In this document: positions 24,604 to 42,040 of the stretch, piece by piece | Position numbering within the stretch: position 1 is the first letter of the stretch | Layout: each line of letters begins with the position of its first letter | NCBI GenBank assembly: GCA_965197645.1 | Contig: OZ240219.1 | Coordinates: forward strand, 1,120,001-1,184,000 | Reading direction: 5' to 3' | Length of the DNA stretch: 64,000 bases | Source: Dehalococcoidia bacterium | Lineage (GTDB): Bacteria > Chloroflexota > Dehalococcoidia > Plut-88900 | The notes under the pieces: model-generated | Told to the model about the DNA's origin: nothing | The model's database searches: none | What the model saw: only the letters and a program-made list of their open reading frames with translations | Made by a program: the position numbers and the translations under genes

Positions 24604-27680
<3,077 letters not shown>

Positions 27681-27791
27681 GCATTAAGATTCGTACAGAA
27701 CCCTTCTCTATTCAGCGTTCCCTGAGAAGGGCGCGTGTTAGGCCTTACCGGCGACGCGCTCTTTCGTTAGATAGTAGTAGGTAGTCCACGA

Positions 27792-27866
27792 CGCGGGGTG
27801 GAGCAGTGGCAGCTCGTCGGGCTCATAACCCGAAGGTCGGCGGTTCGAGTCCGCCCCCCGCTACCA
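27792..27866 (+). tRNA. Initiator tRNA-Met (CAT)
   Basis: Cloverleaf with CAT anticodon, C1:A72 mismatch, GGG/CCC anticodon stem and encoded CCA. Confidence 0.97.
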
Positions 27867-27875
27867 AGGCAGACC

Positions 27876-27917
27876 AAGGCCCCCGGGAGATCGTCTCTCC
27901 GGGGGCCTTTTCCTTTT
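27876..27917 (+). terminator. Intrinsic terminator after 23S-tRNAfMet
   Basis: AAGGCCCCCGGGAGA/TCTCTCCGGGGGCCTT hairpin followed by a T-rich tail. Confidence 0.85.
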
Positions 27918-28055
27918 GTGACAACAATGCGATGTTTGGTCACAATGGCCCTGCCAGGTTCGGGGCTGGCCCGATCCCCCCCCTGTGGTATGGTCGAAAG
28001 TGGTTGTTTCAGCATGCCGTTAGTGCTTCCAATCGCCAAACGCTATAATCCCCAC

Positions 28056-28709
28056 ATGAACACCTCAAATCCCGATTCCGTCAAAAACCGGTACCGACTC
28101 CACGCCGCCGGATACGATAGGACCATGCGCTTCGCCGAGCGCATCCGCACCCAGGCCGTCCGTCGACTGGACCTTCAGCCCGGCGAGTCCGTCCTCGATA
28201 TCGGCTGCGGCACTGGCCTCAGCTTCGACATGATCCAGGAGGAGATCGGGCCCGAGGGCCGGCTCATCGGTGTAGACCTCAGCGCCGATATGCTGGAGAT
28301 CGCCAGGGACAAGGTGGACCAAAACGGTTGGACCAACGTGACGCTGATAGAAGGCGACGCCTTCGGCATAGATCTCCCAGAGCCGCCGGACGCCGTGCTG
28401 GCCTTCTTCGTGCCGGAGATAATGCTCTCGACTCCGACCATCGTCCGCACCCTCGATTCCCTGGCCCCGAACGGCCGGCTGGTCGCGGCGGGAGTCAAGC
28501 ACGCCCGCGGACCACTGGGACCCCTGTTCAATCTCTATTTCCAGGCGCGATTCCGCACTTGGAGATGGGTCGGCTTCCGGGGCGCGGCGAAGCGAATATT
28601 CGCCCGGGGGCAGCCGTACTCAGCGCTGGAGAGGGCCGTGGAAAGACTGGATCGGCGGGACTTTTTCTTGGGGTGTGCCTACGTCGCCCGAGCGGTGAAG
28701 CAGGAGTAG
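28056..28709 (+). CDS. Class I SAM-dependent methyltransferase
   Basis: VLDIGCGTG and IGVDLSADML motifs. ATG lies 6 nt after TATAAT, suggesting a leaderless transcript. Confidence 0.88.
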   Translation: MNTSNPDSVKNRYRLHAAGYDRTMRFAERIRTQAVRRLDLQPGESVLDIGCGTGLSFDMIQEEIGPEGRLIGVDLSADMLEIARDKVDQNGWTNVTLIEGDAFGIDLPEPPDAVLAFFVPEIMLSTPTIVRTLDSLAPNGRLVAAGVKHARGPLGPLFNLYFQARFRTWRWVGFRGAAKRIFARGQPYSALERAVERLDRRDFFLGCAYVARAVKQE

Positions 28710-28776
28710 CTGCCCTCCCACCGAAGGGCCTATCTACCAAGGATGGCCCGTGTGGGGGAGCGAAGATGAAAAGTCG

Positions 28777-28811
28777 AAGGGCGCCACGGGTATACCACCC
28801 GTGGCGCCCCT
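28777..28811 (-). terminator. Hairpin terminator after SBP copy 1
   Basis: GGGCGCCACGGG/CCCGTGGCGCCC stem, homologous to the hairpins after the other three copies. Confidence 0.7.
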
Positions 28812-28826
28812 CAGTTCCGGCCGATC

Positions 28827-30791
28827 TTACTGCCTGGCAGGGGCGTCTGCCGTGAACCAGGACTCCAGGAAAGTGTAGCCCTGGCCGGCCGAACCCTTCA
28901 TTCCGCCGGCGTTGATCAGGTAGTTGGGGTAAACGTTCTCGCTTATCCAATTGGGCATGGGCCACCAGTACAGCTTAACCGCAAAGAGCCTCTGGAGGTC
29001 CTCCACGGCCTGCCTCTTGGTCGCATCGTCTCTCGCCGCCAGTCCGGCCTCAATCAACGCGGTAAGCTCCGGATCGTCGACCCCCTGGAAGTTCAAGGTC
29101 GCGCCGGGATAGAAGGCGTTGTAGTAGAAGTCTACGGGATCCGGATAGGCCGCTGGGGTCCAATCGAAAGCCAGATCGCCTGGCCAGCTCGCAAAGTCGC
29201 TCCAGATCTGGTCGGACATCTCGGGGTAAGTTATAACCGAGAACTGGATGTCCAGTCCCAGCTCCGCCGCGTTGGACTGGAGCACCGAGGCGTTTTCCTC
29301 AAAGACGTTCTCCAGGCGGTGGAGGAACATCTCCACCTGGATCGCGTCCCCGATCTGGAATCCCTCTGGCGCCAGCCCCTCATCTATCAGCTCCTGCAAC
29401 CCCTCGTTGAACAGCGCCTTGGCCCCTGCGATGTCTACTGCGGGCTCGCCATTGGCATCCACCGGGAAATAGACTGCTCCTTCGCCCAACTCGTCCCGAG
29501 GAACGAACCAGGGATGGACGACTGCTATGTCTCTGGTCTCAACACTGGAGCCGCTGTACCACAGCTGAGGACTGCGGTCTACGATCATGTTTAACGCCTG
29601 CCGAACCTTCTGGCTCATGAAGGGGAAGACCTCCAGCTTCGGCACCAGGTATACCTCGGTGGTGAACTGCTCTACCACCGGGCGGTAGTCTGATATCAGT
29701 TCGGGACTATCCTGCAGTGCGTTGACACTCTCTGCGTCACCCGTCCACCAGCCCCAGTAATAGTAGGCCGGGCCCACGTCCAGCTCGCCGCCCCGGTACA
29801 GGGCCATCTTGGCCGCATCGTCGGCGACGAACAGCACTTCGATGTTGTCTATGTAGGGCAGGTTCTCACCGGTAATGCCGTTCGGGCCCCGCCAGTAGTC
29901 CGGGTTCCTCTCGTAGTACTGTCTAACGCCGAACTCGTGCTCCACCAGGGTCCACGGACCCGTTCCTATCACGGACTCCGGCGTCTCGAAGGTGCCGAAC
30001 TCCTCCAGCACCTCGGGCGCCTCTATGACGAAGTAGGTGTATGCGGCGTAGGGCAGCAGGCCGGACCAGGGCTGCTTGAGATTGTAAACCACGGTGTAAT
30101 TGTCCGGCGCTTCGATGCTCTCGATGAAGCCCAGTATGGCCGCGTGAGGCGAGCCCTCGGACATGTAGCGGCCGTAGGAGAACACCACGTCGTCGGCCAC
30201 CAGCTCCCGGCCGTTTACCGGAGGTATGTTCGGCCAGTGGATGCCCTGCCTCAGGTGGAAGGTGACGGTTAGCCCGTCTTCGCTTATCTCCCAGGACTCG
30301 GCCAGCTCAGGGTAAGGAGACAGGTCGGAGGAATCCAGAGGGTCGCAAACGTTGTAGGTGATCAGCTTGTTATGGGTAAAGCTCTTGGTGGCGGCGCCTT
30401 CCCAGGCGTTGTACTGGGAGGTATCGTAGGTTCCCGGATCGTAGCCGGTCAAAGTGAGGGTCCCACCATGCAGGGGCTCTGCGCCTTCCGGCGTGCACAC
30501 CGGGGGCAAGCCCCCCGCCTGTAGAACCAGATCTTCCTCTTCCAGAACAAAATCGGTTGCCTCTTCTTCGGCAACCGGCGCCTCCTCCTCCATCACCATA
30601 TCTTCCGCCGGCTCTTCCTCCATCACATCCTCTTCCATTACCTCCTCAACCGGCGTCTCCTCCGCCGCTTCCTCCATTACTTCGGGCTCTGTCGTAGGTT
30701 CTGTGGCTTCCTCGCCACAGGCCAGCGCCACCAAGGCAATAACTACGACTATGCTGGTGAGTAACCACAGTCGCCTGTTCAGTAGTTTCAT
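28827..30791 (-). CDS. ABC transporter substrate-binding lipoprotein, family 5 (copy 1)
   Basis: Lipobox ALAC, acidic linker, LAESWEISEDGLTVTFHLR, ADDVVFSY, GTGPW and NPDYW family-5 motifs. Confidence 0.93.
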   Translation of the reverse strand: MKLLNRRLWLLTSIVVVIALVALACGEEATEPTTEPEVMEEAAEETPVEEVMEEDVMEEEPAEDMVMEEEAPVAEEEATDFVLEEEDLVLQAGGLPPVCTPEGAEPLHGGTLTLTGYDPGTYDTSQYNAWEGAATKSFTHNKLITYNVCDPLDSSDLSPYPELAESWEISEDGLTVTFHLRQGIHWPNIPPVNGRELVADDVVFSYGRYMSEGSPHAAILGFIESIEAPDNYTVVYNLKQPWSGLLPYAAYTYFVIEAPEVLEEFGTFETPESVIGTGPWTLVEHEFGVRQYYERNPDYWRGPNGITGENLPYIDNIEVLFVADDAAKMALYRGGELDVGPAYYYWGWWTGDAESVNALQDSPELISDYRPVVEQFTTEVYLVPKLEVFPFMSQKVRQALNMIVDRSPQLWYSGSSVETRDIAVVHPWFVPRDELGEGAVYFPVDANGEPAVDIAGAKALFNEGLQELIDEGLAPEGFQIGDAIQVEMFLHRLENVFEENASVLQSNAAELGLDIQFSVITYPEMSDQIWSDFASWPGDLAFDWTPAAYPDPVDFYYNAFYPGATLNFQGVDDPELTALIEAGLAARDDATKRQAVEDLQRLFAVKLYWWPMPNWISENVYPNYLINAGGMKGSAGQGYTFLESWFTADAPARQ

Positions 30792-31004
30792 TCTCTAGCC
30801 TCCTGTGTGATCGTCCTCATTCCTCCACTACCCGCAGCTCTTGCCGCGGCAAGAGCCTCACAAAGTGAGACTTGCTTCTGACGGCGTTACTGCTACATTG
30901 GCCATCTCCTACCTGTCTTCGGTTAGCGGGATCGATAACAGCTTGGACAGGGGTTTCGTGGGGGCTGTTTGGGGCATTTTCCTTCTTTGCTCATACCATG
31001 TCAA
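30792..31004 (-). promoter_or_regulatory. Promoter (TTGACA-17-GAAAAT) and conserved leader of SBP copy 1
   Basis: -35 at 30999-31004, -10-like at 30976-30981, AGGAG-7nt-ATGTAGCAGTAA at 30887-30910, main SD AGGAGG. Confidence 0.7.
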
Positions 31005-31042
31005 CTTTGCTGGCCGGGTGCGGAAAACGAAGGTAAAAGGTA

Positions 31043-31078
31043 AGGGGCGCCACGGGTAGGTATACCCGTGGCGCCCCT
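31043..31078 (-). terminator. Hairpin terminator after SBP copy 2
   Basis: AGGGGCGCCACGGGTA/TACCCGTGGCGCCCCT stem with a pyrimidine-rich tail on the minus strand. Confidence 0.75.
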
Positions 31079-31117
31079 CAGTTCCGGCCGTTCTTACAGC
31101 CTACCAGGAGCGAGTAT

Positions 31118-33082
31118 CTACTGCCTGGCAGGGGCGTCTGCCGTGAACCAGGACTCCAGGAAAGTGTAGCCCTGGCCGGCCGAACCTTTCATTCCGCCGA
31201 CGTTTAAGAGGTAGTCGGGGTAAACGTTCTCACTTATCCAGTTGGGCATCGGCCACCAGTACAGCTTGACCGCCGTGACCCGCTGGAGCTCCTCCACAAC
31301 CGCCCTCTTGGTTGCGTCGTCCCTGGATGCCAGGCCGGCCTCGATCAGCTCGGTAAGCTCCGGGTCGTCAATCCCCTGGAAGTTTAAGGTCGTGCCGGGG
31401 TAGAAGGAGTTGTAGTAGAAGTCTATGGGATCGGGAAAGGTCGCGGGGGTCCAGTCGAAGGCCAGATCGCCGGGCCAGCTCGCGAAGTCGCTCCAGATCT
31501 GGTCGGACATCTCGGGGTAGGTTACAACCGAGAACTGTATGTCCATTCCCAGCTCTGCCGCGTTCGCCTGGAATACCGCGGCGTTTTGCTCGAAGAACTC
31601 CTCCAGGCGGTGGAGGTACATGCTCAGCTCGATCCGGTCTCCCACCTGGAACCCTTCAGGAGCCAGCCCGTCATCTATCAGCTCCTGCAGGCCCTCGTTG
31701 AACAGCGCCTTGGCTCCTTCGATGTCTATGGTCCGGACGCCGTCCGCACCCACCGGAAAGTAGGCTGCGCCTTCGCCCAGCTCATCCAGAGGGACGAACC
31801 AGGGGTGGACGATTGCCATGTCCCTGGTCTCTACATTGGAGCCGCCATACCACAGCTGGGGACTATGGTCTACGACCATGTTTATCGCCTGCCGAACCTT
31901 CTGGTTCATGAAGGGAAAGACCTCCAGCTTTGGCACCAGGTATACCTCGGTGGTGAAGTTCTCCACCACGGGCCGGTAGTCCGCTATCAGATCGGGCCTG
32001 TCCTGCAGGGCGTTCATGGTCTCCGGATCACCCGTCCACCAGCCCCAGTAGTAGTAGGCCGGGCCCACGTCCAACTCGCCGCCCCGGTACAAGGCTACCT
32101 TGGCTGCGTCGTCGAAGACGAACAGCACCTCGATGTTGTCTATGTAGGGCAGGCTCTCCCCGGTTATCCCATCGGGGCCTCGCCAATAGTCGGGGTTCCT
32201 CTCGTAGTACTGCCCAACGCCGAACTCGTGCTCCACCAGAATCCAGGGCCCTGTGCCTATCACCGTTTCCGGTGTCTCCAGTGTGCCGAACTCCTCCAGC
32301 ACCTCGGGCGCCTCTATGACGAAGTAGAGGTATGCGGCGTAGGGCAGCAGGCCCGACCAGGGTCGTTTGAGGTTGAACACCACGGTGTAGTTGTCCGGCG
32401 CTTCGATGCTGTCGATAAAGCCCAGTATGTCCGCGTGAGGTGATCCCTCCGCCCTGTAGCGATTGTAGGAGAACACCACGTCGTCGGCCACCAGCTCCCG
32501 GCCGTTCACCGGGGGTATGTTCTGCCAATTGACGCCCTGCCTCAGGTGGAAGGTAACCGTCAGTCCATCTTCACTTATCTCCCAGGACTCAGCCAGGTCG
32601 GGATAGGGTGAAAGGTCGGAAGCGTCCAGGCGGTCGCAAACGTGATACGAGATAAGCTTGTTGTGAGTAAAGCTCTTAGTGGCAGCGCCCTCCCAGGCGT
32701 TGAATTGGGCGGTGTCGTAAGTTCCCGGGTCGTAGCCGGTCATGGTGAGGGTACCGCCATGAATGGGTTCGGCATCTTCCGGCGTACACACCGGGGGCAA
32801 GCCCCCTGCCTGTAGGACAAGCTCTTCCTGTTCTATAATGTAGTCGATAGCATCTTCTTCGGCGGCAGGCGCCTCCTCCTCCATCACCATCTCTTCAACC
32901 GGCGCCTCCTCCGCTACTTCCTCCTCCATCACCTCCTCAACCGGCGTCTCCTCCGCCGCTTCCTCCATTACTTCGGGCTCTGTCGTAGGTTCTGTGGCTT
33001 CCTCGCCACAGGCCAGCGCCACCAGGGCAATAACTACGACTATGCTGGTGAGTAACCACAGTCGCCTGTTCAGTAGTTTCAT
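31118..33082 (-). CDS. ABC transporter substrate-binding lipoprotein, family 5 (copy 2)
   Basis: Paralog of copy 1 with the same motifs and length (654 aa). Confidence 0.93.
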   Translation of the reverse strand: MKLLNRRLWLLTSIVVVIALVALACGEEATEPTTEPEVMEEAAEETPVEEVMEEEVAEEAPVEEMVMEEEAPAAEEDAIDYIIEQEELVLQAGGLPPVCTPEDAEPIHGGTLTMTGYDPGTYDTAQFNAWEGAATKSFTHNKLISYHVCDRLDASDLSPYPDLAESWEISEDGLTVTFHLRQGVNWQNIPPVNGRELVADDVVFSYNRYRAEGSPHADILGFIDSIEAPDNYTVVFNLKRPWSGLLPYAAYLYFVIEAPEVLEEFGTLETPETVIGTGPWILVEHEFGVGQYYERNPDYWRGPDGITGESLPYIDNIEVLFVFDDAAKVALYRGGELDVGPAYYYWGWWTGDPETMNALQDRPDLIADYRPVVENFTTEVYLVPKLEVFPFMNQKVRQAINMVVDHSPQLWYGGSNVETRDMAIVHPWFVPLDELGEGAAYFPVGADGVRTIDIEGAKALFNEGLQELIDDGLAPEGFQVGDRIELSMYLHRLEEFFEQNAAVFQANAAELGMDIQFSVVTYPEMSDQIWSDFASWPGDLAFDWTPATFPDPIDFYYNSFYPGTTLNFQGIDDPELTELIEAGLASRDDATKRAVVEELQRVTAVKLYWWPMPNWISENVYPDYLLNVGGMKGSAGQGYTFLESWFTADAPARQ

Positions 33083-33296
33083 TCTCTAGCCTCCTGTGTG
33101 ATCGTCCTCATTCCTCCACTACCCGCAACCCTAGTTTGATACAACAGCCTCATAAGGAAGAGTTGGCTTTTGACGGCGTTACTGCTACATTGGCCATCTC
33201 CTACCTGTCTTCGGTTAGCGGGATCGATAACAGCTTGGACAGGGGTTTCGTGGGGGCTGTTTGGGGCATTTTCCTTCTTTGCTCATACCATGTCAA
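33083..33296 (-). promoter_or_regulatory. Promoter and conserved leader of SBP copy 2
   Basis: Identical to the copy 1 leader except 33127-33170. -35 at 33291-33296, -10-like at 33268-33273. Confidence 0.7.
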
Positions 33297-33334
33297 CTTT
33301 GCTGGCCGGGTGCGGAAATCGAAGGTAAAAGGTA

Positions 33335-33370
33335 AGGGGCGCCACGGGTATACCTACCCGTGGCGCCCCT
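33335..33370 (-). terminator. Hairpin terminator after SBP copy 3
   Basis: Same stem as 31043-31078 with the central segment reverse-complemented. Confidence 0.75.
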
Positions 33371-33388
33371 CAGTTCCGGTCGATCTTA

Positions 33389-35353
33389 CTACCTGGCCGG
33401 AGCGTCAGTCGTAAACCAGGACTCTATGAAGCTGTAGCCCTGGTTGGCGTAGCCTTTCATGGCTCCGACGTTTATCAGGTAGTCGGGGTAGATGTTCTGG
33501 CTTATCCAGTGGGGCAACGGCCACCAGTACAGCTTTGTGGCGAAAAGCCTCTGGAGGTCCTCGACGATCTCCCTTTTTGTCTCATCGTCTGTCGCCGACA
33601 GGCCAGCTTCTATCAGGGCGGTGAACTCCGGATCGTCGATACCTTGAAGGTTTCTGGACGCGCCTGGGTAGAACTGGTTGTAGTAGAACTCAATCGGGTC
33701 GGGATAGCCTGTCCACATATAGTCGAACGCCAGCTCTGATGGCCAGTTTTCAGTGGTCGTGCTCCAGAAGGTGTCAAACATCTCCTGGTACGATATCACT
33801 GTGAGCTCTGCGTCTATTCCCAGCTCCGCCAAGTTGGCCTGGAATACCGGGGCGTTATACGGGAACTGCGCATCCGTCCCCTCGGTGTACAGCTCTATCT
33901 GGATCCGGTCTCCCACTTGGAACCCTGCAGGAGCTAGACCCTGGTCTATCAGCTCCTGTAACCCCTCGTTGAGCAGCACCCGGGCTCCTTCGATGTCTAC
34001 GGTCGGGTTGCCCTCCGCATCCACCGGAAAGTACTGTGCTGCTTCGCCCAGCTCTTCCACGGGTAGGTACCAGGGGTGGAGGGACACCAGGTCCCTGGTC
34101 TCGATCTGGGCGCCGTCGAACCACAGCTGAGGACTCCGGTCTATGACCATGTTTATCGCCTGCCGCACCTTCTGGTTCATGAAGGGGAAGGCCTCGAGGT
34201 CAGGCATGATCCACATCCCGGGAGAGATGTTCTCCACCACCTCTCGGTAGTCCGATATCAGATCGGGCCTGTCTGTCAGTGCATTCATCATCTCGGGAGA
34301 TGCCGTCCACCAGCCCCAGGACCACCAGGCTGGGCCTACGTCCAACTCCCCTGCTCGATATAACGACAGCTTGGCGGAGTCCTCAGTGACGAACAACGCC
34401 TCGATGCTGTCTATGTAGGGCAGGTTCTCCCCGGTTATCCCGTTGGGGCCCCGCCAGTAGTCGGGGTTCCTCTCGAAGACCTGTTTAACCCCGATCTCAT
34501 GCTCCACCAGAATCCATGGACCCGTGCCTATCACCGACTCCGGCGTCTCCAAAGTACCTAACTCCTCCAGCACATCGGGAGCGTCGATAGGGAAGTAGTA
34601 GTAGGCTGAGTAGGCAATCAACCCCGACCAGGGTCGGTTGAGGCGGAACACCACCGTGTAGTTATCAGGGGCTTCGACGCTGTCGACAAATGCCAGTATG
34701 CCGGCGTGAGGTGATCCCTCAGCCATGTAGCGGTTGTAGGAGAACACCACGTCGTCGGCCACCAGCTCCCGGCCGTTCAGCGGGGGTATGTCCTGCCACT
34801 TCACTCCCTGCCTAAGGTGGAAGGTGACTGTCAGTCCGTCTTCGCTTGTCTCCCAGGACTCGGCCAGGTCAGGGACGGGCGTTAAGTCGGAAGATTCATG
34901 AGGGTCACAGATGTCATAATTGGTCAACTTGTTGTGGGTAAAGCTCTTGACTACGGCGCCCGACCAGATCTCCCCACCCCCGGCTGTGTCGTAGCTTCCC
35001 GGGTCATATCCGGTCAAGGTAAGGGTACCGCCCGGGATGGGGTTGGCGCCTTCTGGCGTACATATCGGAGGCAAGCCTCCCGTCAGCACAACCAGCTCTT
35101 CAACCGGCTCCTCGACCGGCGCCTCCTCCTCCATCACCATCTCTTCCTCGGCAACCGGCTCCTCCTCCATCACCATCTCTTCCTCGACGACCGGCTCCTC
35201 CTCCATCACCTCCTCAACCGGCGGCGCCTCCACCTCCTCCGCTACCTCAGGGACTGGCGTAGGCGCAGCTTCCTCGCCGCAGGCCAGCGCCACCAGGGCG
35301 ATAACGACGACTATACTGGTGAATAACCACAACCGTCTGTTTAGTGATTTCAT
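33389..35353 (-). CDS. ABC transporter substrate-binding lipoprotein, family 5 (copy 3, most divergent)
   Basis: Same scaffold with divergent segments (GGGEIWSG, WWSWGWW, DYMWTGY). Confidence 0.93.
   Translation of the reverse strand: MKSLNRRLWLFTSIVVVIALVALACGEEAAPTPVPEVAEEVEAPPVEEVMEEEPVVEEEMVMEEEPVAEEEMVMEEEAPVEEPVEELVVLTGGLPPICTPEGANPIPGGTLTLTGYDPGSYDTAGGGEIWSGAVVKSFTHNKLTNYDICDPHESSDLTPVPDLAESWETSEDGLTVTFHLRQGVKWQDIPPLNGRELVADDVVFSYNRYMAEGSPHAGILAFVDSVEAPDNYTVVFRLNRPWSGLIAYSAYYYFPIDAPDVLEELGTLETPESVIGTGPWILVEHEIGVKQVFERNPDYWRGPNGITGENLPYIDSIEALFVTEDSAKLSLYRAGELDVGPAWWSWGWWTASPEMMNALTDRPDLISDYREVVENISPGMWIMPDLEAFPFMNQKVRQAINMVIDRSPQLWFDGAQIETRDLVSLHPWYLPVEELGEAAQYFPVDAEGNPTVDIEGARVLLNEGLQELIDQGLAPAGFQVGDRIQIELYTEGTDAQFPYNAPVFQANLAELGIDAELTVISYQEMFDTFWSTTTENWPSELAFDYMWTGYPDPIEFYYNQFYPGASRNLQGIDDPEFTALIEAGLSATDDETKREIVEDLQRLFATKLYWWPLPHWISQNIYPDYLINVGAMKGYANQGYSFIESWFTTDAPAR
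35123..35210. repeat. 36-bp tandem repeat (about 2.4 units) in the acidic linker of SBP copy 3
   Basis: CTCCTCCTCCATCACCATCTCTTCCTCG(GCA/ACG)ACCGG repeated, encoding PV(V/A)EEEMVMEEE. Confidence 0.85.
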
Positions 35354-35567
35354 TCTTTCGCCTCCTGTTAGATTGCCCGGATTCCTCTACCGCCCAGAGC
35401 CCCTGTTACAACAATAGCCTCAATTTAGGAACGATTGGCTTTTGGTAACGTTACTGCTACATTGACTATCTCCCACCTGTTTCGGCTAGTGGGATTGATA
35501 ACAGCTTGGACAGGGGTTTCGTGGGGGCTGTTTGGGGCATTTTCCTTCTTTGCTCATACCATGTCAA
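35354..35567 (-). promoter_or_regulatory. Promoter and conserved leader of SBP copy 3
   Basis: -35 at 35562-35567, -10-like at 35539-35544, GGGAG-7nt-ATGTAGCAGTAA at 35451-35474. Confidence 0.7.
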
Positions 35568-35603
35568 CTTTGCTGGCCGGGTGCGGAAAACGAAGGTGAA
35601 AGG

Positions 35604-35643
35604 TGAGGGGCTCCGCGAGTAGACCTACCCGCGGAGCCCCTCA
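35604..35643 (-). terminator. Hairpin terminator after SBP copy 4
   Basis: TGAGGGGCTCCGCG/CGCGGAGCCCCTCA stem with compensatory changes relative to the other copies. Confidence 0.75.
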
Positions 35644-35656
35644 GTTCCGGTCGATC

Positions 35657-37582
35657 TTACTGCCTGGCGGGAGCGTCCTCCGTGAACCAGGACTCCAGGA
35701 AGGTGTAGCCCTGGTGGGCTGATCCCTTCATTCCGCCGGCGTTCTTGAGGTAGTCCGGATAAACGTTCTCGCTTATCCAGTGGGGAGTCGGCCACCAGTA
35801 CAGCTTCACAGCGAAGAGCTTCTGGAGGTCCTCCACTATCTTCCTCTTGGTTTCATCGTCTCTTGCCGCGAACCCGGCGTCAATCAGCTCTACAAACTCG
35901 GGGTCATCGACCTTCTGGAGGTTGTTCGCGTTGCCGGGGTAGAAGAAGTTGTAGTAGAAGTCAATGGGATCCGGGAAGGTCTGGAGAGTCCAGTCGTAGG
36001 CTATATCGCCGGGCCAGTCATCAAAGTCGCCCCAGATCTGATCGTACATCTCGCCGTAGTCTATGACCTTGAGATCTACGTCCATTCCCAGCTCTTTAGC
36101 GTTGGCCTGGAACACCGATGCGTTCTGCTCGAAGAACTCTTCCACGCGGTGGGTGAACATTTTTACCTGTATCGGATCGCCAATCTGAAACCCCTCGGGG
36201 GCCAGCCCCTCATCTATCAGCTCCTGCAGCCCCTCGTTGAACAGTACCTTGGCCCCTTCGACGTCCGCGGTCATGGTGCCCTCCGCATCCGTCGGGAAGT
36301 AGGCTGCCCCCTCGCCCAGCTCATCGAGGGGGACGAACCAGGGATGGACGGCGATCAGGTCCCTGGTCTCGACCACGGCGCCGCCGAACCATAGCTGGGG
36401 ACTGCGGTCTATGATCATGTTTATCGCCTGCCGCACCTTCTGGTTCATGAAGGGGAAAGTTGTCAGCTTTGGTACGATGTACACCTCGGTGGTGAACTGC
36501 TCTACCACCTGCCGGTGGTCCGCTATCAGATCGGGCCTATCCTGCAGTGCGTTCAAGCTCTCCGGGTCGGCCGACCACCAGCCCCAGTAGTAGTAGGCTG
36601 GGCCCACGTCCAGCTCGCCGCTCCGGTACATGGATATCTTGGTCGCATCTTCGGCGACGAACAGCACTTCGATGTTGTCTATGTAGGGCAGGTTCTCACC
36701 GGTTACCCCGTTGGGCCCCCGCCAGTAGTCCGGGTTCCTCTCGTAGTACTGTCTAACCCCGAACTCGTGCTCCACCAGGATCCACGGCCCCGTGCCTATC
36801 ACCGACTCCGGGGTCTCCAAGGTGCCGAGCTCATGCAGCACCTCGGGCGCCTCGATAACGAAGTAGTGATAGGCGGCGTAGCCGAGAAGGCCGGACCAGG
36901 GCCTCTTGAGGCTGAACACCACGGTGTAGTTGTCCGGTGCTTCGACGCTGTCGACGAAGCCCAGTACGCCCGAGAGGGGCGAGATCTCGTTCATGTAGCG
37001 GTTGTAGGAGAACACCACGTCGTCGGCCACCAGCTCCCGGCCGTTTACCGGAGGTATGTTCTGCCACTTGACGCCCTTCCTCAGGTGGAAGGTGACGGTT
37101 AGCCCGTCTTCGCTTATCTCCCAGGACTCGGCCAGGTCGGGGTAGGGGGACAGGTCGGAAGAGTCGTGGGGGTCGCAGATGTGATACGTGATCAGCTTGT
37201 TGTGGGTAAAGCTCTTTGTGGCGGCCGCTTCCCAGGCGTTGTACTGGGAGGTGTCGTAGGTTCCCGGGTCGTAGCCGGTCATGGTGAGGGTACCGCCGTG
37301 AAGGGGCTCGGCGCCTTCCGGCGTGCACACCGGAGGCAAGCCGCCCGTCTGGAGGACCGTCTCATCCATCGCCTCATCTTCCATCACCATCTCGTCGTCC
37401 GGTTCCTCCTCCATCACTTCCTCTTCCATTACCTCCTCAACCGGCGTCTCCTCCACCGCTTCCTCCATTACTTCGGGCGCTGTCGTAGGTTCTGTGGCTT
37501 CCTCGCCACAGGCCAGCGCCACCAGGGCGATAACGACGACGATGCTGGTGAGTAACCAGAGCCGCCTGTTCAGTAGTTTCAT
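35657..37582 (-). CDS. ABC transporter substrate-binding lipoprotein, family 5 (copy 4)
   Basis: 641 aa paralog with a shorter acidic linker. Confidence 0.93.
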   Translation of the reverse strand: MKLLNRRLWLLTSIVVVIALVALACGEEATEPTTAPEVMEEAVEETPVEEVMEEEVMEEEPDDEMVMEDEAMDETVLQTGGLPPVCTPEGAEPLHGGTLTMTGYDPGTYDTSQYNAWEAAATKSFTHNKLITYHICDPHDSSDLSPYPDLAESWEISEDGLTVTFHLRKGVKWQNIPPVNGRELVADDVVFSYNRYMNEISPLSGVLGFVDSVEAPDNYTVVFSLKRPWSGLLGYAAYHYFVIEAPEVLHELGTLETPESVIGTGPWILVEHEFGVRQYYERNPDYWRGPNGVTGENLPYIDNIEVLFVAEDATKISMYRSGELDVGPAYYYWGWWSADPESLNALQDRPDLIADHRQVVEQFTTEVYIVPKLTTFPFMNQKVRQAINMIIDRSPQLWFGGAVVETRDLIAVHPWFVPLDELGEGAAYFPTDAEGTMTADVEGAKVLFNEGLQELIDEGLAPEGFQIGDPIQVKMFTHRVEEFFEQNASVFQANAKELGMDVDLKVIDYGEMYDQIWGDFDDWPGDIAYDWTLQTFPDPIDFYYNFFYPGNANNLQKVDDPEFVELIDAGFAARDDETKRKIVEDLQKLFAVKLYWWPTPHWISENVYPDYLKNAGGMKGSAHQGYTFLESWFTEDAPARQ

Positions 37583-37799
37583 TCTCTCGCCTCCTGTGTG
37601 ATCATACTAAGTTCTCCACTACCCGCAGTCCTGGCTACGGCAGGAATCTGGCGGGAAGGGACTGGTTGTTGACGACGTTACTGCTACATTGGCTATCTCC
37701 TACCTGTTCTCGGTCGGAGGAGAATGGTGGCAGCCAATAGTGGGGTTTCGTGAAAGCTGTTCGCGGCATTTTCCTTCGGTGCCAATACGTTGTCAACAA
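37583..37799 (-). promoter_or_regulatory. Promoter and diverged but homologous leader of SBP copy 4
   Basis: -35 at 37791-37796, -10-like at 37768-37773, AGGAG-7nt-ATGTAGCAGTAA at 37678-37701. TTGTCAACAA palindrome overlaps the -35. Confidence 0.68.
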
Positions 37800-38029
37800 T
37801 GTGTATGATTTCACAAAGCTTACCGGGAGATGGCACCGCACATGTAGGCCTTCACTATGTCCGGCTGCCTCTTGTTGCCTGCGGTGAAGGAGCGCCCTCT
37901 GAAGCGTGCAATATGGTAGCATGTGCATCTCAATAGCTACCCAGAAGCCCATCTTGAAACCTCCGCCTACCGCCAGGTGATACGATAAGTTCCTGGAGTG
38001 GCGGCAACCGTGGAAAGGGAAGGTGAGCC

Positions 38030-39718
38030 ATGAGAGAGTACGATCTGGTAATCAGGGGCGGAACGATAGTGGATGGAACGGGCATTCCTCGCTACAGGGC
38101 GGACCTGGCGGTCAAGGACGGTCGGGTGGCCAACATCAGCGGCAAGATCCCGGCGGGCAACGCCAAGGAGATAGATGCCGGCGGATGCATCGTGGCGCCC
38201 GGGGCCATCGACCTCCACACCCACTACGATGCACAGCTCAACTGGGACCCTTACGCCACCCTTTCGGGCTGGTTCGGGGTCACCTCTCTCACCATCGGAC
38301 AGTGTGGCTTCGGATTCGCGCCCACCAGGCCCCAAGACCGGGAGCTCAACATGCGCATGATGAATCGCATAGAGGCCATTCCGTTGGAGTCCATGCGATT
38401 GGGAATGCGGTGGGACTGGGAGACCTTCCCCGAGTATCTCGATAGCCTGGACCGGCAGGCCCTGGGGGTGAACGTGGGAGCACTGTTCCCCTTCTCGCCC
38501 CTGAGAGGATATGTGCTGGGGATGATCCCGTCCCGGGAGAGGACATCGGTTACGGACGAGGAGTTGAACGAGATGAAGCGCCTCTTCCACGAGGCCATGG
38601 AGGCCGGCGCCTTTGGCTTCTCCACGGACATGAACACGGGGGATAGGCCGGAAGATGGGTCCTGGCTGCCCAGCCACGTGGCCTCCAACGAGGAGTACAC
38701 GGCTCTCGCAGAGGTGCTTACCGAGTTCGGAGTGGGGCACATCGGCTGGACCATTGCTAATTCCGGGGGCCTCCCTCCCGAGAAGAGTCCGAGTCGACAG
38801 CGTGAGGTGATGACCCAGCTGATGAGGATCAGTGGCCGGCCCCTGCACGTGCTCTTGGAGCAGGAATCGGCCCGGGACGCGTGGGTGGCGGAGATGCGGG
38901 CCGAGGGGCTGCCTCTAATGACCCAGGAGTTGGTCATGGAGGTCAATGCCGAGTTCAAGCTGGCGGAGTACAACCTCTTCGATACTCTGCCCAGCTGGGT
39001 GGATCCGCTGGTCGGCACAGTCGAGGAACGGGTCATCAAGCTGCGGGACCCCGACACCCGGGCCGCCATGAAGAAAGACGCCGACGAGCAGGCCCTGCTC
39101 CGTACCGACTGGACCAGGATCACCGTCCTGGAGACGATCCACGAGCGGAACTACAAGTATGACGGGCTAACTATCGAAGAGGTAGCCCGCATGCAGGACA
39201 AGCATCCTCTGGACGCCTTCCTGGACCTGGCCCTGGACGAGGCGCTGGAGACCCAGTTTGCCCACGCTGTGGACCCCGAGCCGTTGGAGCAGAATGTCCT
39301 GAACCCCTATGGACACATCTCAGTGTCCGATGGCGGCGCCCACACCAGGTACCTCACCACCGCTACCTGGCCCGTGGAGTTCCTTACCCACTGGGTCCGG
39401 GACAAGGAGATAATGAGTCTGGAGCAAGCCCATTACAAGATGAGCTCGCTCCCCGCCTGGTTCGCCGATTTCAAGGACCGGGGCGCTCTCCGCATAGGGG
39501 CCTGGGCCGATATCATGGTCTACGACCAGCAGGAGCTAGGCTTCCTCTACGACAGGATGGTCTACGCCAACGACTTTCCGGGCGGCGAGCGCCGGGTGAT
39601 ACAGAAGCCCACGGGCCTTCGTTACACCCTGGTCAACGGCGCCGTGACCTTCGAGGACAACGAGTGCACAGGCGCACTGCCGGGCGTGCTGCTGCGCAGC
39701 TACGACATGGTAGTCTGA
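38030..39718 (+). CDS. N-acyl-D-amino-acid deacylase family amidohydrolase
   Basis: DLVIRGGTIVDGTG, APGAIDLHTHYD, GQCGFGFAP, SDGGAH and LVNG motifs. Confidence 0.9.
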   Translation: MREYDLVIRGGTIVDGTGIPRYRADLAVKDGRVANISGKIPAGNAKEIDAGGCIVAPGAIDLHTHYDAQLNWDPYATLSGWFGVTSLTIGQCGFGFAPTRPQDRELNMRMMNRIEAIPLESMRLGMRWDWETFPEYLDSLDRQALGVNVGALFPFSPLRGYVLGMIPSRERTSVTDEELNEMKRLFHEAMEAGAFGFSTDMNTGDRPEDGSWLPSHVASNEEYTALAEVLTEFGVGHIGWTIANSGGLPPEKSPSRQREVMTQLMRISGRPLHVLLEQESARDAWVAEMRAEGLPLMTQELVMEVNAEFKLAEYNLFDTLPSWVDPLVGTVEERVIKLRDPDTRAAMKKDADEQALLRTDWTRITVLETIHERNYKYDGLTIEEVARMQDKHPLDAFLDLALDEALETQFAHAVDPEPLEQNVLNPYGHISVSDGGAHTRYLTTATWPVEFLTHWVRDKEIMSLEQAHYKMSSLPAWFADFKDRGALRIGAWADIMVYDQQELGFLYDRMVYANDFPGGERRVIQKPTGLRYTLVNGAVTFEDNECTGALPGVLLRSYDMVV

Positions 39719-39735
39719 TTGCAAATCTGTCGGAT

Positions 39736-39830
39736 GTAGGGAGAGTCCAGAAGGACACTTCCCTCTGGCAGGGGGATTGGGGGATGTGCCCCCAGGTATA
39801 AACCCATCCCGGTGTGGGGTGGAGGGGGAC
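39736..39830 (+). repeat. REP-like palindromic repeat, family A
   Basis: CCAGAAGG..CCCTCTGG plus GGGGGATTGGGGGATGTGCCCCCAG; similar to 42184-42260, 45787-45870 and 45670-45728 (reverse). Confidence 0.65.
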
Positions 39831-39871
39831 AAAAGCACCGATGCTTTTGAGACAAGCTCAGGAGAGTGCCA

Positions 39872-40723
39872 ATGATCAGCGAAGAGCAGGTCAAGCAGTA
39901 TCGTGAGGATGGGTACCTGGTCGTCAAGAACGTCCTGTCGAAGGACGAGGTGGCCGAGCTCGGCCGGGTTACCGACGAGTTCCGGGAGAAGTCTCGAGAG
40001 GCAACCGAGCACACGGGCGTCTTCGATCTCGAACCCGACCACACCCCGGAGGACCCCAAGCTCCGTCGCATAAAATCGCCCCACGAGCATCACCCCGTTT
40101 ACGAAGCCGCCCGTTGCAACGAGAGAATCCTCGACGTCGTCGAGCATCTCGTGGGTCCGGGTGTTCGATTCTTCGAGACGAAGCTCAACATGAAATGCCC
40201 CGAGGGCGGCAGCCAGGTGGAGTGGCACACCGACTGGGGTTTCTACCCCCACACCAACGATGACATCGTCGCGGTGGGCATCTCCCTGGATGACATGGAG
40301 ATCGAAAACGGGTGCATGATGGTGATGCCCGGCTCCCACACCGGCCCCCACTGGAGTCACCACGAGGACGGGGTGTTTATAGGCGCCGTCTCCGAAGAGG
40401 CGTTCGACATGGAGTACGCGGCCCCTGTGACCATGAAGGCGGGAGACATCTCCGTGCATCACGTGCGACTGCTCCACGGGTCAGCACCCAACGTCTCGGA
40501 GAGGCCCAGACGCCTTCTTCTTCAGAGCTACACGGCCCTCGACGCCTTTCCCCTCAGCGGCATCGCCGACTGGGACGTGTGGAACGACATGATCCTCCGT
40601 GGCGAGCCCACGTTCGAACCCCGCTTGGAGAAGGTGCCGGTCCACTTCCCGCTGCCAATGCCCGACCGTGTTGGCTCCATCTTCGAGCTGCAGACCCAGA
40701 TGAAGAAGTCCCACTACAAGTAG
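39872..40723 (+). CDS. Phytanoyl-CoA dioxygenase (PhyH) family Fe(II)/2OG dioxygenase
   Basis: QYREDGYLV, WHTD (HxD), PGSH and LLHGS..N..R motifs; AGGAG 7 nt upstream. Confidence 0.92.
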   Translation: MISEEQVKQYREDGYLVVKNVLSKDEVAELGRVTDEFREKSREATEHTGVFDLEPDHTPEDPKLRRIKSPHEHHPVYEAARCNERILDVVEHLVGPGVRFFETKLNMKCPEGGSQVEWHTDWGFYPHTNDDIVAVGISLDDMEIENGCMMVMPGSHTGPHWSHHEDGVFIGAVSEEAFDMEYAAPVTMKAGDISVHHVRLLHGSAPNVSERPRRLLLQSYTALDAFPLSGIADWDVWNDMILRGEPTFEPRLEKVPVHFPLPMPDRVGSIFELQTQMKKSHYK

Positions 40724-40796
40724 CCGGCCCCGCTTACGCCCGCGCGTCTATGCGCCGGCTTTTCACCGCCCACCACCGGAACGTAAGGAGGAGATC

Positions 40797-41798
40797 ATGG
40801 GAGGATACGCAGAGCTCGAACAGCGACTGGCTGACGGCGAAGTGCTGGTTCTGGACGGGGCCATCGGCACCGAGATTACCAGGCTGGGCGCCCCGGCTCA
40901 TCCCATAGCCTGGACCGCCGAGGCCCTGTTCACCCATCCTCACACCGTGCGCCACATGCACGAGCGCTACATCAAGGCCGGGGCCGACATCATTATGACC
41001 AACACCTTCGGCAGCCACCGGGACGTGCTGGAGGCCTCCGGCTACGGCACCCAGGTTCGGGAGGCCAATATCCGAGCCGTCTACCTGGCCCAGGAGGCCG
41101 TTGCCAGGGCCGCAGGCGGCAGGTCCGTCTACATAGCGGGTTCCATCAGCGACCGGCACGTGGGGCGAGAGGTACACACGGGCGCTCTCCGAGCCATGAG
41201 CGGCGACGGATATCATCTGGACCCAATCCTCAAAGAGGCCTACTACGACGAGATGGTCGACCACCTTGCCGAGATGGGCGTGGACTTCTTCCTGCTGGAG
41301 AACCTGTCCGATCATCCGGCGAGGAAGATGTGTCTGGACGCCGCTAAGCGCTCGGGCCTGCCGGTCTGGTCCAGCATCAGCCAGGTATACGAAGAGGATG
41401 ACAAGCTTCTGGTCAGCGATCGGGAGAGAGACGATCTTACCTTGGACGAGAGCCTGGAAGACATGATGTCCTGGGGCGGCCAGGCGGCGATGACCATCAT
41501 GCACGCCGAGATCCCCGAGACCACTCTTGGTCTGGAGGTGCTCAGCGAGAAATGGGACGGGCCCATGGCGGCCTACCCGGACTCGTTGCGGCCGGACTGG
41601 CTGACCACCTGGCAGGACCTGTCCATCCAGAACGCGGAATCGCCCCAGGACTTCGTGGCCGAGGCGAAGAAGTGGGTCGAGATGGGGGTCCAGGTGATCG
41701 GGACATGCTGTGGGTTCGGTGTAGAGTACATCGAGCCGCTGAAGGAAGGGTTGCCCAGCCACATCCCGACGCCGCGCAACGTGAAGAAGGCGGCCTGA
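40797..41798 (+). CDS. Homocysteine S-methyltransferase family protein
   Basis: VLDGAIGTE, HERYIKAGADIIMTNTF, IAGSIS and IGTCCG motifs. Confidence 0.9.
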   Translation: MGGYAELEQRLADGEVLVLDGAIGTEITRLGAPAHPIAWTAEALFTHPHTVRHMHERYIKAGADIIMTNTFGSHRDVLEASGYGTQVREANIRAVYLAQEAVARAAGGRSVYIAGSISDRHVGREVHTGALRAMSGDGYHLDPILKEAYYDEMVDHLAEMGVDFFLLENLSDHPARKMCLDAAKRSGLPVWSSISQVYEEDDKLLVSDRERDDLTLDESLEDMMSWGGQAAMTIMHAEIPETTLGLEVLSEKWDGPMAAYPDSLRPDWLTTWQDLSIQNAESPQDFVAEAKKWVEMGVQVIGTCCGFGVEYIEPLKEGLPSHIPTPRNVKKAA

Positions 41799-41915
41799 AC
41801 CCCCTCCGGGCTGGAAATCGAGGGATACTTCACCGGCTCGTTGCAAAACCGGCGTGGGGTGGGGCTCCCATTCATCAGCCCAACCCTCTTGAAACGTGGT
41901 CCTAACCACCCTGGC

Positions 41916-42040
41916 TAGATTGCCACGCCCCGACATTGTCGGGGCTCGCAATGACGAAGGTATGGATTCAATCTGACGGTAGTCGTCGTTGCGAGCGAGG
42001 GGGAGTTGGTCTTGGTGGGTTGAAGAGAGCGAAGCAATCC
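41916..42040. repeat. Two inverted GTCATTGCGAG...GCAATC-type REP/RPE-like palindromic elements
   Basis: Minus GTCATTGCGAGCCCCGACAATGTCGGGGCGTGGCAATCT at 41917-41955; plus GTCGTTGCGAGC...GAGCGAAGCAATCC at 41985-42040. Confidence 0.7.

Follow-up and report, generated by a model that had tools for sequence, protein, structure and literature searches.

Why would a bacterium retain, in one leader after another, a translation start that cannot encode a peptide? This question is raised by a tandem of solute-binding protein (SBP) genes in an uncultured Dehalococcoidia bacterium (assembly GCA_965197645.1). The stretch analysed here, referred to as the window, comprises 64,000 nucleotides (contig OZ240219.1, positions 1,120,001 to 1,184,000). 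The element in question is a 31-nt block in the 5' leader of each gene, in which a Shine-Dalgarno (SD) sequence is followed at a functional spacing by AUG and immediately by UAG. We tentatively favour, at somewhat less than even probability, the reading that the block is an upstream ribosome-binding site (RBS) with a zero-length frame, i.e. a ribosome docking site of the STAB-SD or start-stop kind that would serve as a 5' roadblock or tuner. The four genes of the window are all matched by PF00496 (E 7.5e-53 to 5.6e-59), the family-5 solute-binding proteins, and their products start with a lipoprotein signal peptide (MKLLNRRLWLL...LACGEE) followed by a Glu/Met-rich linker. The genes and their blocks are located as follows.

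28827..30791, minus strand: SBP_bac_5 paralogue 1 (654 aa), Pfam PF00496
31118..33082, minus strand: SBP_bac_5 paralogue 2, Pfam PF00496
33389..35353, minus strand: SBP_bac_5 paralogue 3, Pfam PF00496
35657..37582, minus strand: SBP_bac_5 paralogue 4, Pfam PF00496
30885..30916, minus strand: copy 1 of the block, -18 to +14 around the upstream AUG (sequence read, exact motif, alignments), with GGAG 30909-30906, 7-nt spacer 30905-30899, AUG 30898-30896, UAG 30895-30893, CAG 30892-30890 and UAA 30889-30887
33177..33208, minus strand: copy 2 of the block, AUG 33190-33188 (motif and alignment)
35449..35480, minus strand: copy 3 of the block, AUG 35462-35460, holding the three substitutions of the block (GGUGGGAG, AUAG and GUCA)
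37676..37707, minus strand: copy 4 of the block, AUG 37689-37687 (motif and alignment)

The copy 1 block reads ACAGGUAGGAG-AUGGCCA-AUG-UAG-CAG-UAA-CG from 30916 to 30885; the order throughout is GGAG, a 7-nt spacer, AUG-UAG and then CAGUAACG. Its 12-mer ATGTAGCAGTAA occurs at exactly four sites in the window, all on the minus strand (30887-98, 33179-90, 35451-62 and 37678-89), against a chance expectation of 0.04 matches, and none of 100 dinucleotide-preserving shuffles reached four. When all 3.21 Mb of the genome were searched with a 25-nt motif, a fifth copy was located outside the window (G000:C1:2324111-2324135, minus strand), upstream of a fifth SBP paralogue with a leader of the same type. 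GGAG, the 7-nt spacing, AUG and the immediate UAG are kept in all five copies, which therefore all have the start codon with adjoining in-frame stop that defines a bacterial start-stop. The upstream AUG and the main ATG lie 107-109 nt apart across the copies (A to A), with 95 nt between TAA and the SBP ATG in copy 1. The initial annotation of the window had described this motif in all four SBP leaders, with an SD 7 nt before ATG-TAG, a second in-frame stop and about 95 nt to the SBP start, and the sequence bears this out, with the element placed on the minus strand and the fifth copy added. It had also pointed out that a 15-aa peptide could open at an ATG in copies 1 and 2, and that copies 3 and 4 have ATA there; the same replacement is found in copy 5.

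Is the block kept more strictly than the relationship of the five genes would lead one to expect? The paralogues are 70-85% identical in protein, 76-86% in nucleotides of the coding sequence (CDS) and 68-91% in the leader. As a neutral yardstick we used four-fold degenerate sites in codons with an identical amino acid across all five genes, 43% of which (73/170) are invariant; overall, 53% of the leader columns are invariant. Because 28 of the 31 block columns are invariant compared with only 43% of the four-fold sites, the block is under selection (binomial tail at p = 0.43: 4.7e-8; about 9e-6 after allowing for some 190 window positions). The longest invariant run in the leader, 16 columns (CAATGTAGCAGTAACG), lies here, as expected from the earlier description of the block as the best-conserved part of the leaders. 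The other two of the three longest runs are known expression signals, namely the -10 region (13 columns, GAAGGAAAATGCC) and the true SD (9 columns). Two of the three tolerated block substitutions sit in the spacer between SD and AUG. A start-stop behind a competent SD has thus been kept letter for letter in five leaders while silent sites have largely diverged, which we read from the alignment as direct evidence of selection on a start-stop-bearing element of a 5' untranslated region (UTR).

The same comparison bears on whether the block might be a functionless relic of a duplicated translation start, in which the stop is kept to silence an out-of-frame start and the copies are homogenised by gene conversion. 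Three SD-AUG-like units are indeed present in the leader (CAGGUAGGAG..AUG, GGGUAGUGGAGGAAUG and CAGGAGG..AUG), and a stop directly after a spurious start is discussed as damage limitation by Meydan et al. (bioRxiv 10.1101/520783). Recombination is visible as well: the copy 2 leader (33080-33297, compared with 30789-31005 and L005:1403-1620) is a mosaic with the flanks of copy 1 and a variable hairpin resembling that of copy 5, which indicates that recombination occurs among the paralogues. However, a relic would be expected to drift, in conflict with the invariance described above, and damage limitation accounts for the stop but leaves unexplained why the SD, the AUG and the 8 nt that follow the stop are conserved. 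Conversion of the core alone would need tracts of about 16-20 nt in each of the five copies, and seems unlikely because copy 3 has private substitutions on both sides of the core, within 3-11 nt of it (before the AUG at distances of 3 and 11 nt, and directly after the core). Purifying selection is the simpler reading, and we regard a relic as improbable.

Could ribosomes load at the upstream site? The landmarks of the leader that are needed for this comparison are given below.

30976..31004, minus strand: sigma-70-like promoter of copy 1, TTGACA-17-GAAAAT (promoter scan, 10/12 consensus matches)
33268..33296, 35539..35567 and 37768..37796, minus strand: equivalent promoters of copies 2, 3 and 4 (promoter scan, 10/12 each)
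30789..30804, minus strand: main start of SBP copy 1, AGGAGG 30804-30799 and ATG 30791-30789 (sequence read, SD duplex energy)

The -35 and -10 hexamers are invariant in all five copies and their spacer is variable; each gene is separately promoted. Transcription of copy 1 probably starts near 30969, about 7 nt past the -10 hexamer, so that the leader would measure about 178 nt and the upstream AUG would fall near +72. Downstream of the block, copy 1 has in order a copy-variable hairpin, a second SD-like unit (CGGGUAGUGGAGGAAUG) and the true SD, AGGAGG. The 3' end of the genome's own 16S rRNA reads ...GGATCACCTCCTTTCT. Paired with this tail, the upstream SD (SD1) gives duplexes of -9.1 to -10.5 kcal/mol and the true SD -10.3 to -12.3 kcal/mol, and only 7% of random genomic 19-mers reach -10 kcal/mol. 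The spacing after AGGAG is 7 nt at the upstream site and 8 nt at the true start. Because the SD1 duplex with the 16S tail is near the strength of the true SD, ribosome loading at the upstream site is plausible.

The decay machinery of the host suggests what a ribosome docked there might do. The genome encodes RNase J (TIGR00649, 585.8 bits; cut-off 400) and RNase Y (652.1 bits; cut-off 454), whereas no match to RNase E/G was obtained in the genome, which is 94% complete. Likewise, CsrA (PF02599) and Hfq (PF17209) had no match in the genome, while control genomes were matched. The closest RNase J relatives (54-63% identity) come from metagenome-assembled genomes (MAGs) of Dehalococcoidia and Chloroflexota, and the sequencing runs that contain the locus include sponge metatranscriptomes. 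Since RNase J and RNase Y are encoded and RNase E was not found, the host is, by its gene content, apparently a Chloroflexota-like sponge symbiont with mRNA decay of the Bacillus type. Lodato et al. reportedly found in 2012 that the RBS of a mini-ORF protects an mRNA of the type III secretion system (T3SS) from RNase E.

From the anatomy, the selection on the block, the strength of the SD and the nuclease repertoire observed here, we infer the following course of events, in which ribosome binding, stabilisation and any tuning of the main start are putative. A 30S or 70S ribosome would dock on GGAG-N7-AUG, meet UAG in its A site and be released without a peptide. While bound it would cover about -18 to +14. 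The conserved block spans just this interval, and the footprint of an initiating ribosome matches it in size. The parked ribosome would then shield the mRNA from decay by RNase Y or RNase J that enters at the 5' side. In a secondary role, it could keep the 3' flank of the block (GYYRYC) off the GACGAU beside the true SD. In decay of the Bacillus type, an SD-like sequence or an initiating ribosome near the 5' end blocks RNase J and stabilises the mRNA (PMC4113751, PMC3997798).

How does the element compare with systems already described? Bacterial start-stops are known mainly from ribosome profiling of Escherichia coli, and their selective value there is doubtful. Meydan et al. (bioRxiv 10.1101/520783) describe 14 cases found by Ribo-RET, inside genes and out of frame. 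At the yecJ start-stop a ribosome was bound in toeprints, and removal of the site raised expression by about 16% (same source). The element described here resembles these sites in that it cannot encode a peptide, the E. coli sites being proposed there to bind ribosomes and fine-tune expression. Unlike them, it lies in a 5' leader about 107 nt from the gene, is conserved in five diverged paralogues, is known from sequence alone and is embedded in a longer invariant block.

A second comparison is with the STAB-SD of the Bacillus thuringiensis cry3A gene, an SD-like sequence at -129 that blocks the 5'-3' exonuclease activity of RNase J (PMC4113751); related 5' ribosome roadblocks have been described for aprE, hbs and ermC (PMC4113751, PMC3997798, PMC5737220). 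An SD in the 5' UTR that is complementary to 16S rRNA and does not start the main open reading frame (ORF), and a host with RNase J, are the marks of a STAB-SD, and both are found here; as in cry3A, the SD lies far upstream and can pair with the 16S 3' end. In contrast, the STAB-SD as described in that source needs no start codon and lies close to the 5' end of the stable transcript, whereas the present SD has an AUG-UAG and lies about 60 nt from the probable 5' end. In Sinorhizobium meliloti, upstream RBSs act by occlusion or coupling with start codons 3-25 nt apart (PMC13285730). The likeness lies in an upstream RBS that is occupied by ribosomes, here putatively, yields little or no product and alters the downstream gene. 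Direct occlusion of the main RBS is excluded here because the two starts are 107-109 nt apart compared with 3-25 nt in S. meliloti. Minimal start-stops in a 5' UTR are also found in eukaryotes, namely the AUG-stop of plant NIP5;1, cited in bioRxiv 10.1101/520783, and human start-stops (bioRxiv 10.1101/2021.07.26.453809, PMC13338717). They are conserved regulatory ribosome traps; unlike the present element, they depend on scanning, have no SD and belong to a different translation system. If the roadblock reading is true, stabilisers of the STAB-SD type would extend beyond the Firmicutes and be tied to start-stops, in a lineage of Dehalococcoidia-like Chloroflexota with RNA decay of the Bacillus type and no known post-transcriptional regulators.

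Several observations weigh against a ribosome docking site. Invariance extends 8 nt past the stop (CAGUAACG) and 5 nt before the SD, neither of which a start-stop alone needs, and the variable flanks can pair so as to present the invariant 15-nt core as a loop, a typical pattern of a recognition site. The probable 5' end is about 60 nt away from the upstream SD, whereas a STAB-SD lies near the 5' end of the stable transcript. SD1 is mostly paired in the predicted ensembles (unpaired probability 0.03-0.47), and forcing the start-stop region open in folding of the five copies gave no consistent change at the main RBS: with -15 to +15 around the upstream AUG held single-stranded, the accessibility of the true SD went from 0.44 to 0.28, 0.40 to 0.34, 0.32 to 0.31, 0.30 to 0.34 and 0.57 to 0.57. 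Genome-wide, 13 of 397 intergenic GGAG-N5-9-ATG sites (3.3%) are followed by a stop, compared with a stop-trinucleotide background of 3.2%. In the leaders of two distant SBP paralogues of the same genome, d2 and d3, no SD precedes the ATG-TGG or ATG-TGA. Finally, the evidence base is five related paralogous copies in a single uncultured genome.

The pairing of the flanks leads to the question of whether the block is instead read as RNA structure. The candidate elements are the following.

30880..30906, minus strand: candidate hairpin A, GAUGGC (30906-30901) with GCCGUC (30885-30880), its loop being the invariant 15 nt CAAUGUAGCAGUAAC
30810..30815, minus strand: GACGAU, the partner in helix B, just 5' of the main SD, an alternative partner of the 3' flank GCCGUC at 30880-30885
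30937..30969, minus strand: possible 5'-terminal stem-loop, AACAGC (30969-30964) with GCUGUU (30942-30937), its CAGC/GCUG core invariant in five copies
30920..30929, minus strand: C-rich anti-SD-like element CCGCUAACCG with two possible pairing partners, GGUAG of the upstream SD and CGGGUAGUGG at 30825-30834

On this reading, the GAURGY/GYYRYC stem of hairpin A shows its CAAUGUAGCAGUAAC loop to an RNA-binding protein or to a tertiary or long-range RNA contact, and the letters of SD, AUG and UAG are not translation signals. The loop does not vary at any of its 15 positions, which take in the 8 nt past the stop. The 6-bp stem is paired in 90% of cells and shows one double change (G-C to A-U, copy 3), and a three-helix structure that includes hairpin A is paired in 88% of cells, compared with 29-55% in slid controls. 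The 3' arm has a second partner near the true SD, in helix B, where 86.7% of cells are paired and two pairs have changed on both sides; hairpin A and helix B share this arm and are mutually exclusive, which would suit a switch. However, with five sequences the covariation is not significant, as 163 of 500 shuffles scored as high for hairpin A and 96 of 500 for helix B, and the stem has one mismatch in each of copies 3, 4 and 5. The fold of the single sequence is not unusually stable (z = -0.46). A search of the genome for antisense partners of the loop gave 85 non-self sites that pair at 13 or more of the 15 positions, no more than the 90 +/- 32 obtained with shuffled loops, and neither an Rfam family nor, in this genome, CsrA or Hfq offers a known reader. 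It is also improbable that GGAG, the spacing, AUG and the stop should coincide by chance, for which our own uncomputed estimate is about 1e-3 to 1e-4. We therefore consider a hairpin-presented site a serious rival, somewhat less likely than the docking site. If true, it would point to a new RNA-binding protein that regulates nutrient uptake in a sponge symbiont.

In the 5' stem, 92.9% of cells are paired and 4 of the 6 pairs never vary, which is compatible with structure and no proof of it. The C-rich element forms a 10-nt inverted repeat in copy 5 (90% complementary), and its helix is paired in 82% of cells with zero compensatory changes. Enumeration of conserved helices gave many G-U-rich possibilities, none of them compelling. 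The initial annotation had regarded a match to a known riboswitch as contrary to a translational element; the Rfam 15 covariance models, run over 26000-42000, gave nothing on any leader at E <= 1, and a scan of the whole window at the gathering thresholds returned only rRNA and tRNAs. Its own alternative, a protein-binding site or structured core, is still viable in view of the 8 nt of invariance past the stop and the pairing flanks.

The ribosome docking site and the hairpin could also be two states of one device. In such a zero-length-ORF switch, a parked ribosome would compete with the hairpin that shows the same 15 nt to a second reader, either a protein or the helix between the 3' flank and the pre-SD segment, and the output of the paralogue family would be set by the capacity of free ribosomes or release factors. 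We think this quite improbable; if true, the AUG-stop sensors of plants would have a bacterial equivalent, placed in the 5' UTRs of a Chloroflexota sponge symbiont.

Does the element act on DNA rather than on RNA? An operator within the transcribed region, at about +54 to +85, might bind a transcription factor that blocks elongation or loops to the promoter. The position of the block relative to the promoter is fixed in all copies, CCGAAG stands just upstream of both the -10 and the block in copies 4 and 5, and in copy 4 a 13-nt inverted repeat joins the -35 region with the 3' flank of the core (37666-37678 with 37787-37799, 92% complementary). This repeat is, however, found in copy 4 only, no palindrome or direct repeat was listed within the invariant core, and a regulator gene stands beside neither locus, the neighbours being genes for an amidohydrolase, a PhyH dioxygenase, a methyltransferase and a CoA-transferase. 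An operator is accordingly very improbable, and the probability that the four named readings (docking site, hairpin, relic and operator) leave over belongs to something else.

Returning to the ribosome docking site, is there reason to regard it as a sensor? The initial annotation had proposed a ribosome-loading or translation-sensing attenuator that could respond to initiation, RF1 or recycling capacity. The loading part of this proposal agrees with the anatomy, the selection on the block and the plausible binding of ribosomes, but the sensing part finds no counterpart in the data. A scan for terminator-like sites detected no intrinsic terminator on the gene strand inside any leader, and the variable hairpin has no following U run; transcription attenuation is thus unlikely, as the leaders have no terminator-like site. 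In a crude set of 2530 ORFs the stop codons are 1208 TAG, 812 TGA and 510 TAA, and since TAG is the commonest stop, the UAG carries no obvious RF1-specific meaning. Five of the 13 intergenic SD-ATG-stop cases are these very leaders; as the genome-wide rate equals the background and these leaders supply 5 of the 13, there is no start-stop regulon. Together with the lack of consistent coupling to the main RBS, these results give no support to an attenuator or RF1 sensor.

How widely is the element distributed? The genome-wide and cross-species motif search suggested earlier yielded the fifth copy in the same genome and, with the 25-nt motif at up to 3 mismatches, none in 400 other genomes of the class. 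BLASTN with the 217-nt leader found none in 40 relatives, and nhmmer searches with leader and core profiles recovered only the five copies of the own genome. Two protein-seeded scans of metagenome contigs, one of them seeded with low-complexity Glu/Met peptides, gave no relative. The closest SBP relatives among genome contigs are only 24-39% identical, and the best in the other 11 genomes of the family is 32% identical. Because no homologue was found outside the genome, comparative power is low. An exact scan of genome contigs for GGAG-N5-CAATGTAGCAGTAACG gave one match, inside a 174-aa ORF of a Succinivibrionaceae MAG, which is attributed to chance. In 60 relatives, a covariance model built on the block together with hairpin A gave four matches (E 0.009-0.03), about as many as chance would give; the only one inspected, from the same family, lacks an SD-AUG-stop and lies partly over the 3' end of an ORF that runs on the other strand.

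The genome also contains six SBP paralogues at 36-54% identity to the query, which allow a more distant comparison. The leaders of d2, d3 and d6 have the same promoter type and a CCGCAAACA-like transcript start; an orphan GUAGGAGAU stands some 35 nt ahead of the start in d2 and d3, and an anti-SD-like AUCCUCC is present in d1 and d4. ATG-TGA is present in d3 and d6 and ATG-TGG at the same place in d2, with a convincing SD (GGGGGUGA) in front only in d6. A joint alignment of the leaders of the close and distant groups, which is unreliable, gave no clear counterpart of the block in the distant group. Orphan SD and anti-SD modules are thus a family trait of these leaders, and the block of SD and AUG-UAG appears specific to the five close paralogues. 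Sites of distant SBP_bac_5 paralogues lie at G000:C1 ~1525554-1531835, 2272132-2274054, 2287437-2289353 and 3101356-3103281. The match of d6 is split over two adjacent frames (residues 6-228 and 227-554; G000:C1:1525848-1527475, plus strand), which suggests a frameshifted gene or an assembly error.

Sequencing contigs add little variation. In contigs of two runs of unrecorded library type (X4 and X5) the copy 1 leader is identical over 30806-31021, and X4 differs at 31022-31104. A contig from an RNA library covers the copy 2 leader (33104-33283) with zero differences, and a second runs from CDS into a copy-5-like leader. Such contigs prove neither transcription nor starts, ends or levels, and those from RNA libraries are weak evidence, attesting presence without added variation.

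Terminator-like 18-bp hairpins are found downstream of copies 1, 2 and 3.

31041..31080, minus strand: terminator-like 18-bp hairpin between copy 2 and the copy 1 promoter, with equivalents at 33333-33372 and 28775-28813

Rfam ftsZ-DE scored 30.8 bits on the terminator hairpin at 31041-31103 and 26.8 bits on that at 33334-33370, below its gathering threshold of 72.2; the similarity covers only the hairpin and is taken as hairpin likeness.

Two other short frames were noted in the leaders. A second upstream ORF (uORF), MRTITQEARE, closes with a TGA that shares letters with the SBP start codon (ATGA). It occurs in copies 1, 2, 4 and 5 (30789-30820, 33080-33111, 37580-37605 and L005 ~1403-1434), reads MITQEARE (8 codons) in copy 4, and is missing in copy 3, which has ATC and an in-frame TAA. 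This uORF might serve translational coupling or might be a relic. An ORF of 21-24 codons from an ATG inside the -10 hexamer was rejected: its frame is broken in copies 3 and 4, its SD spacing is 2 nt, and its ATG precedes the probable transcription start.

In the SBP genes themselves, the linker after the lipobox Cys comprises about 60 low-complexity residues rich in Glu, Met and Val with VMEEE repeats (window 30500-30720 and the equivalents in the other copies), and the first 120 nt of the CDS are closer among the copies (80-99%) than the remaining CDS (75-86%). ABC permease or ATPase genes adjoin the SBP genes at neither locus. The neighbours in the window (38030-41798, plus strand) encode Amidohydro_3, PhyH dioxygenase and homocysteine S-methyltransferase products, and a family III CoA-transferase gene adjoins copy 5 (L005:1769-2974, plus strand). 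The rRNA genes are unlinked: the 23S gene stands alone in the window (24604-27681, plus strand), which contains neither 16S nor 5S, and is followed by a tRNA gene at 27792-27863, and the only 16S gene found lies about 300 kb from the 23S gene, at G000:C1:1447263-1448874.

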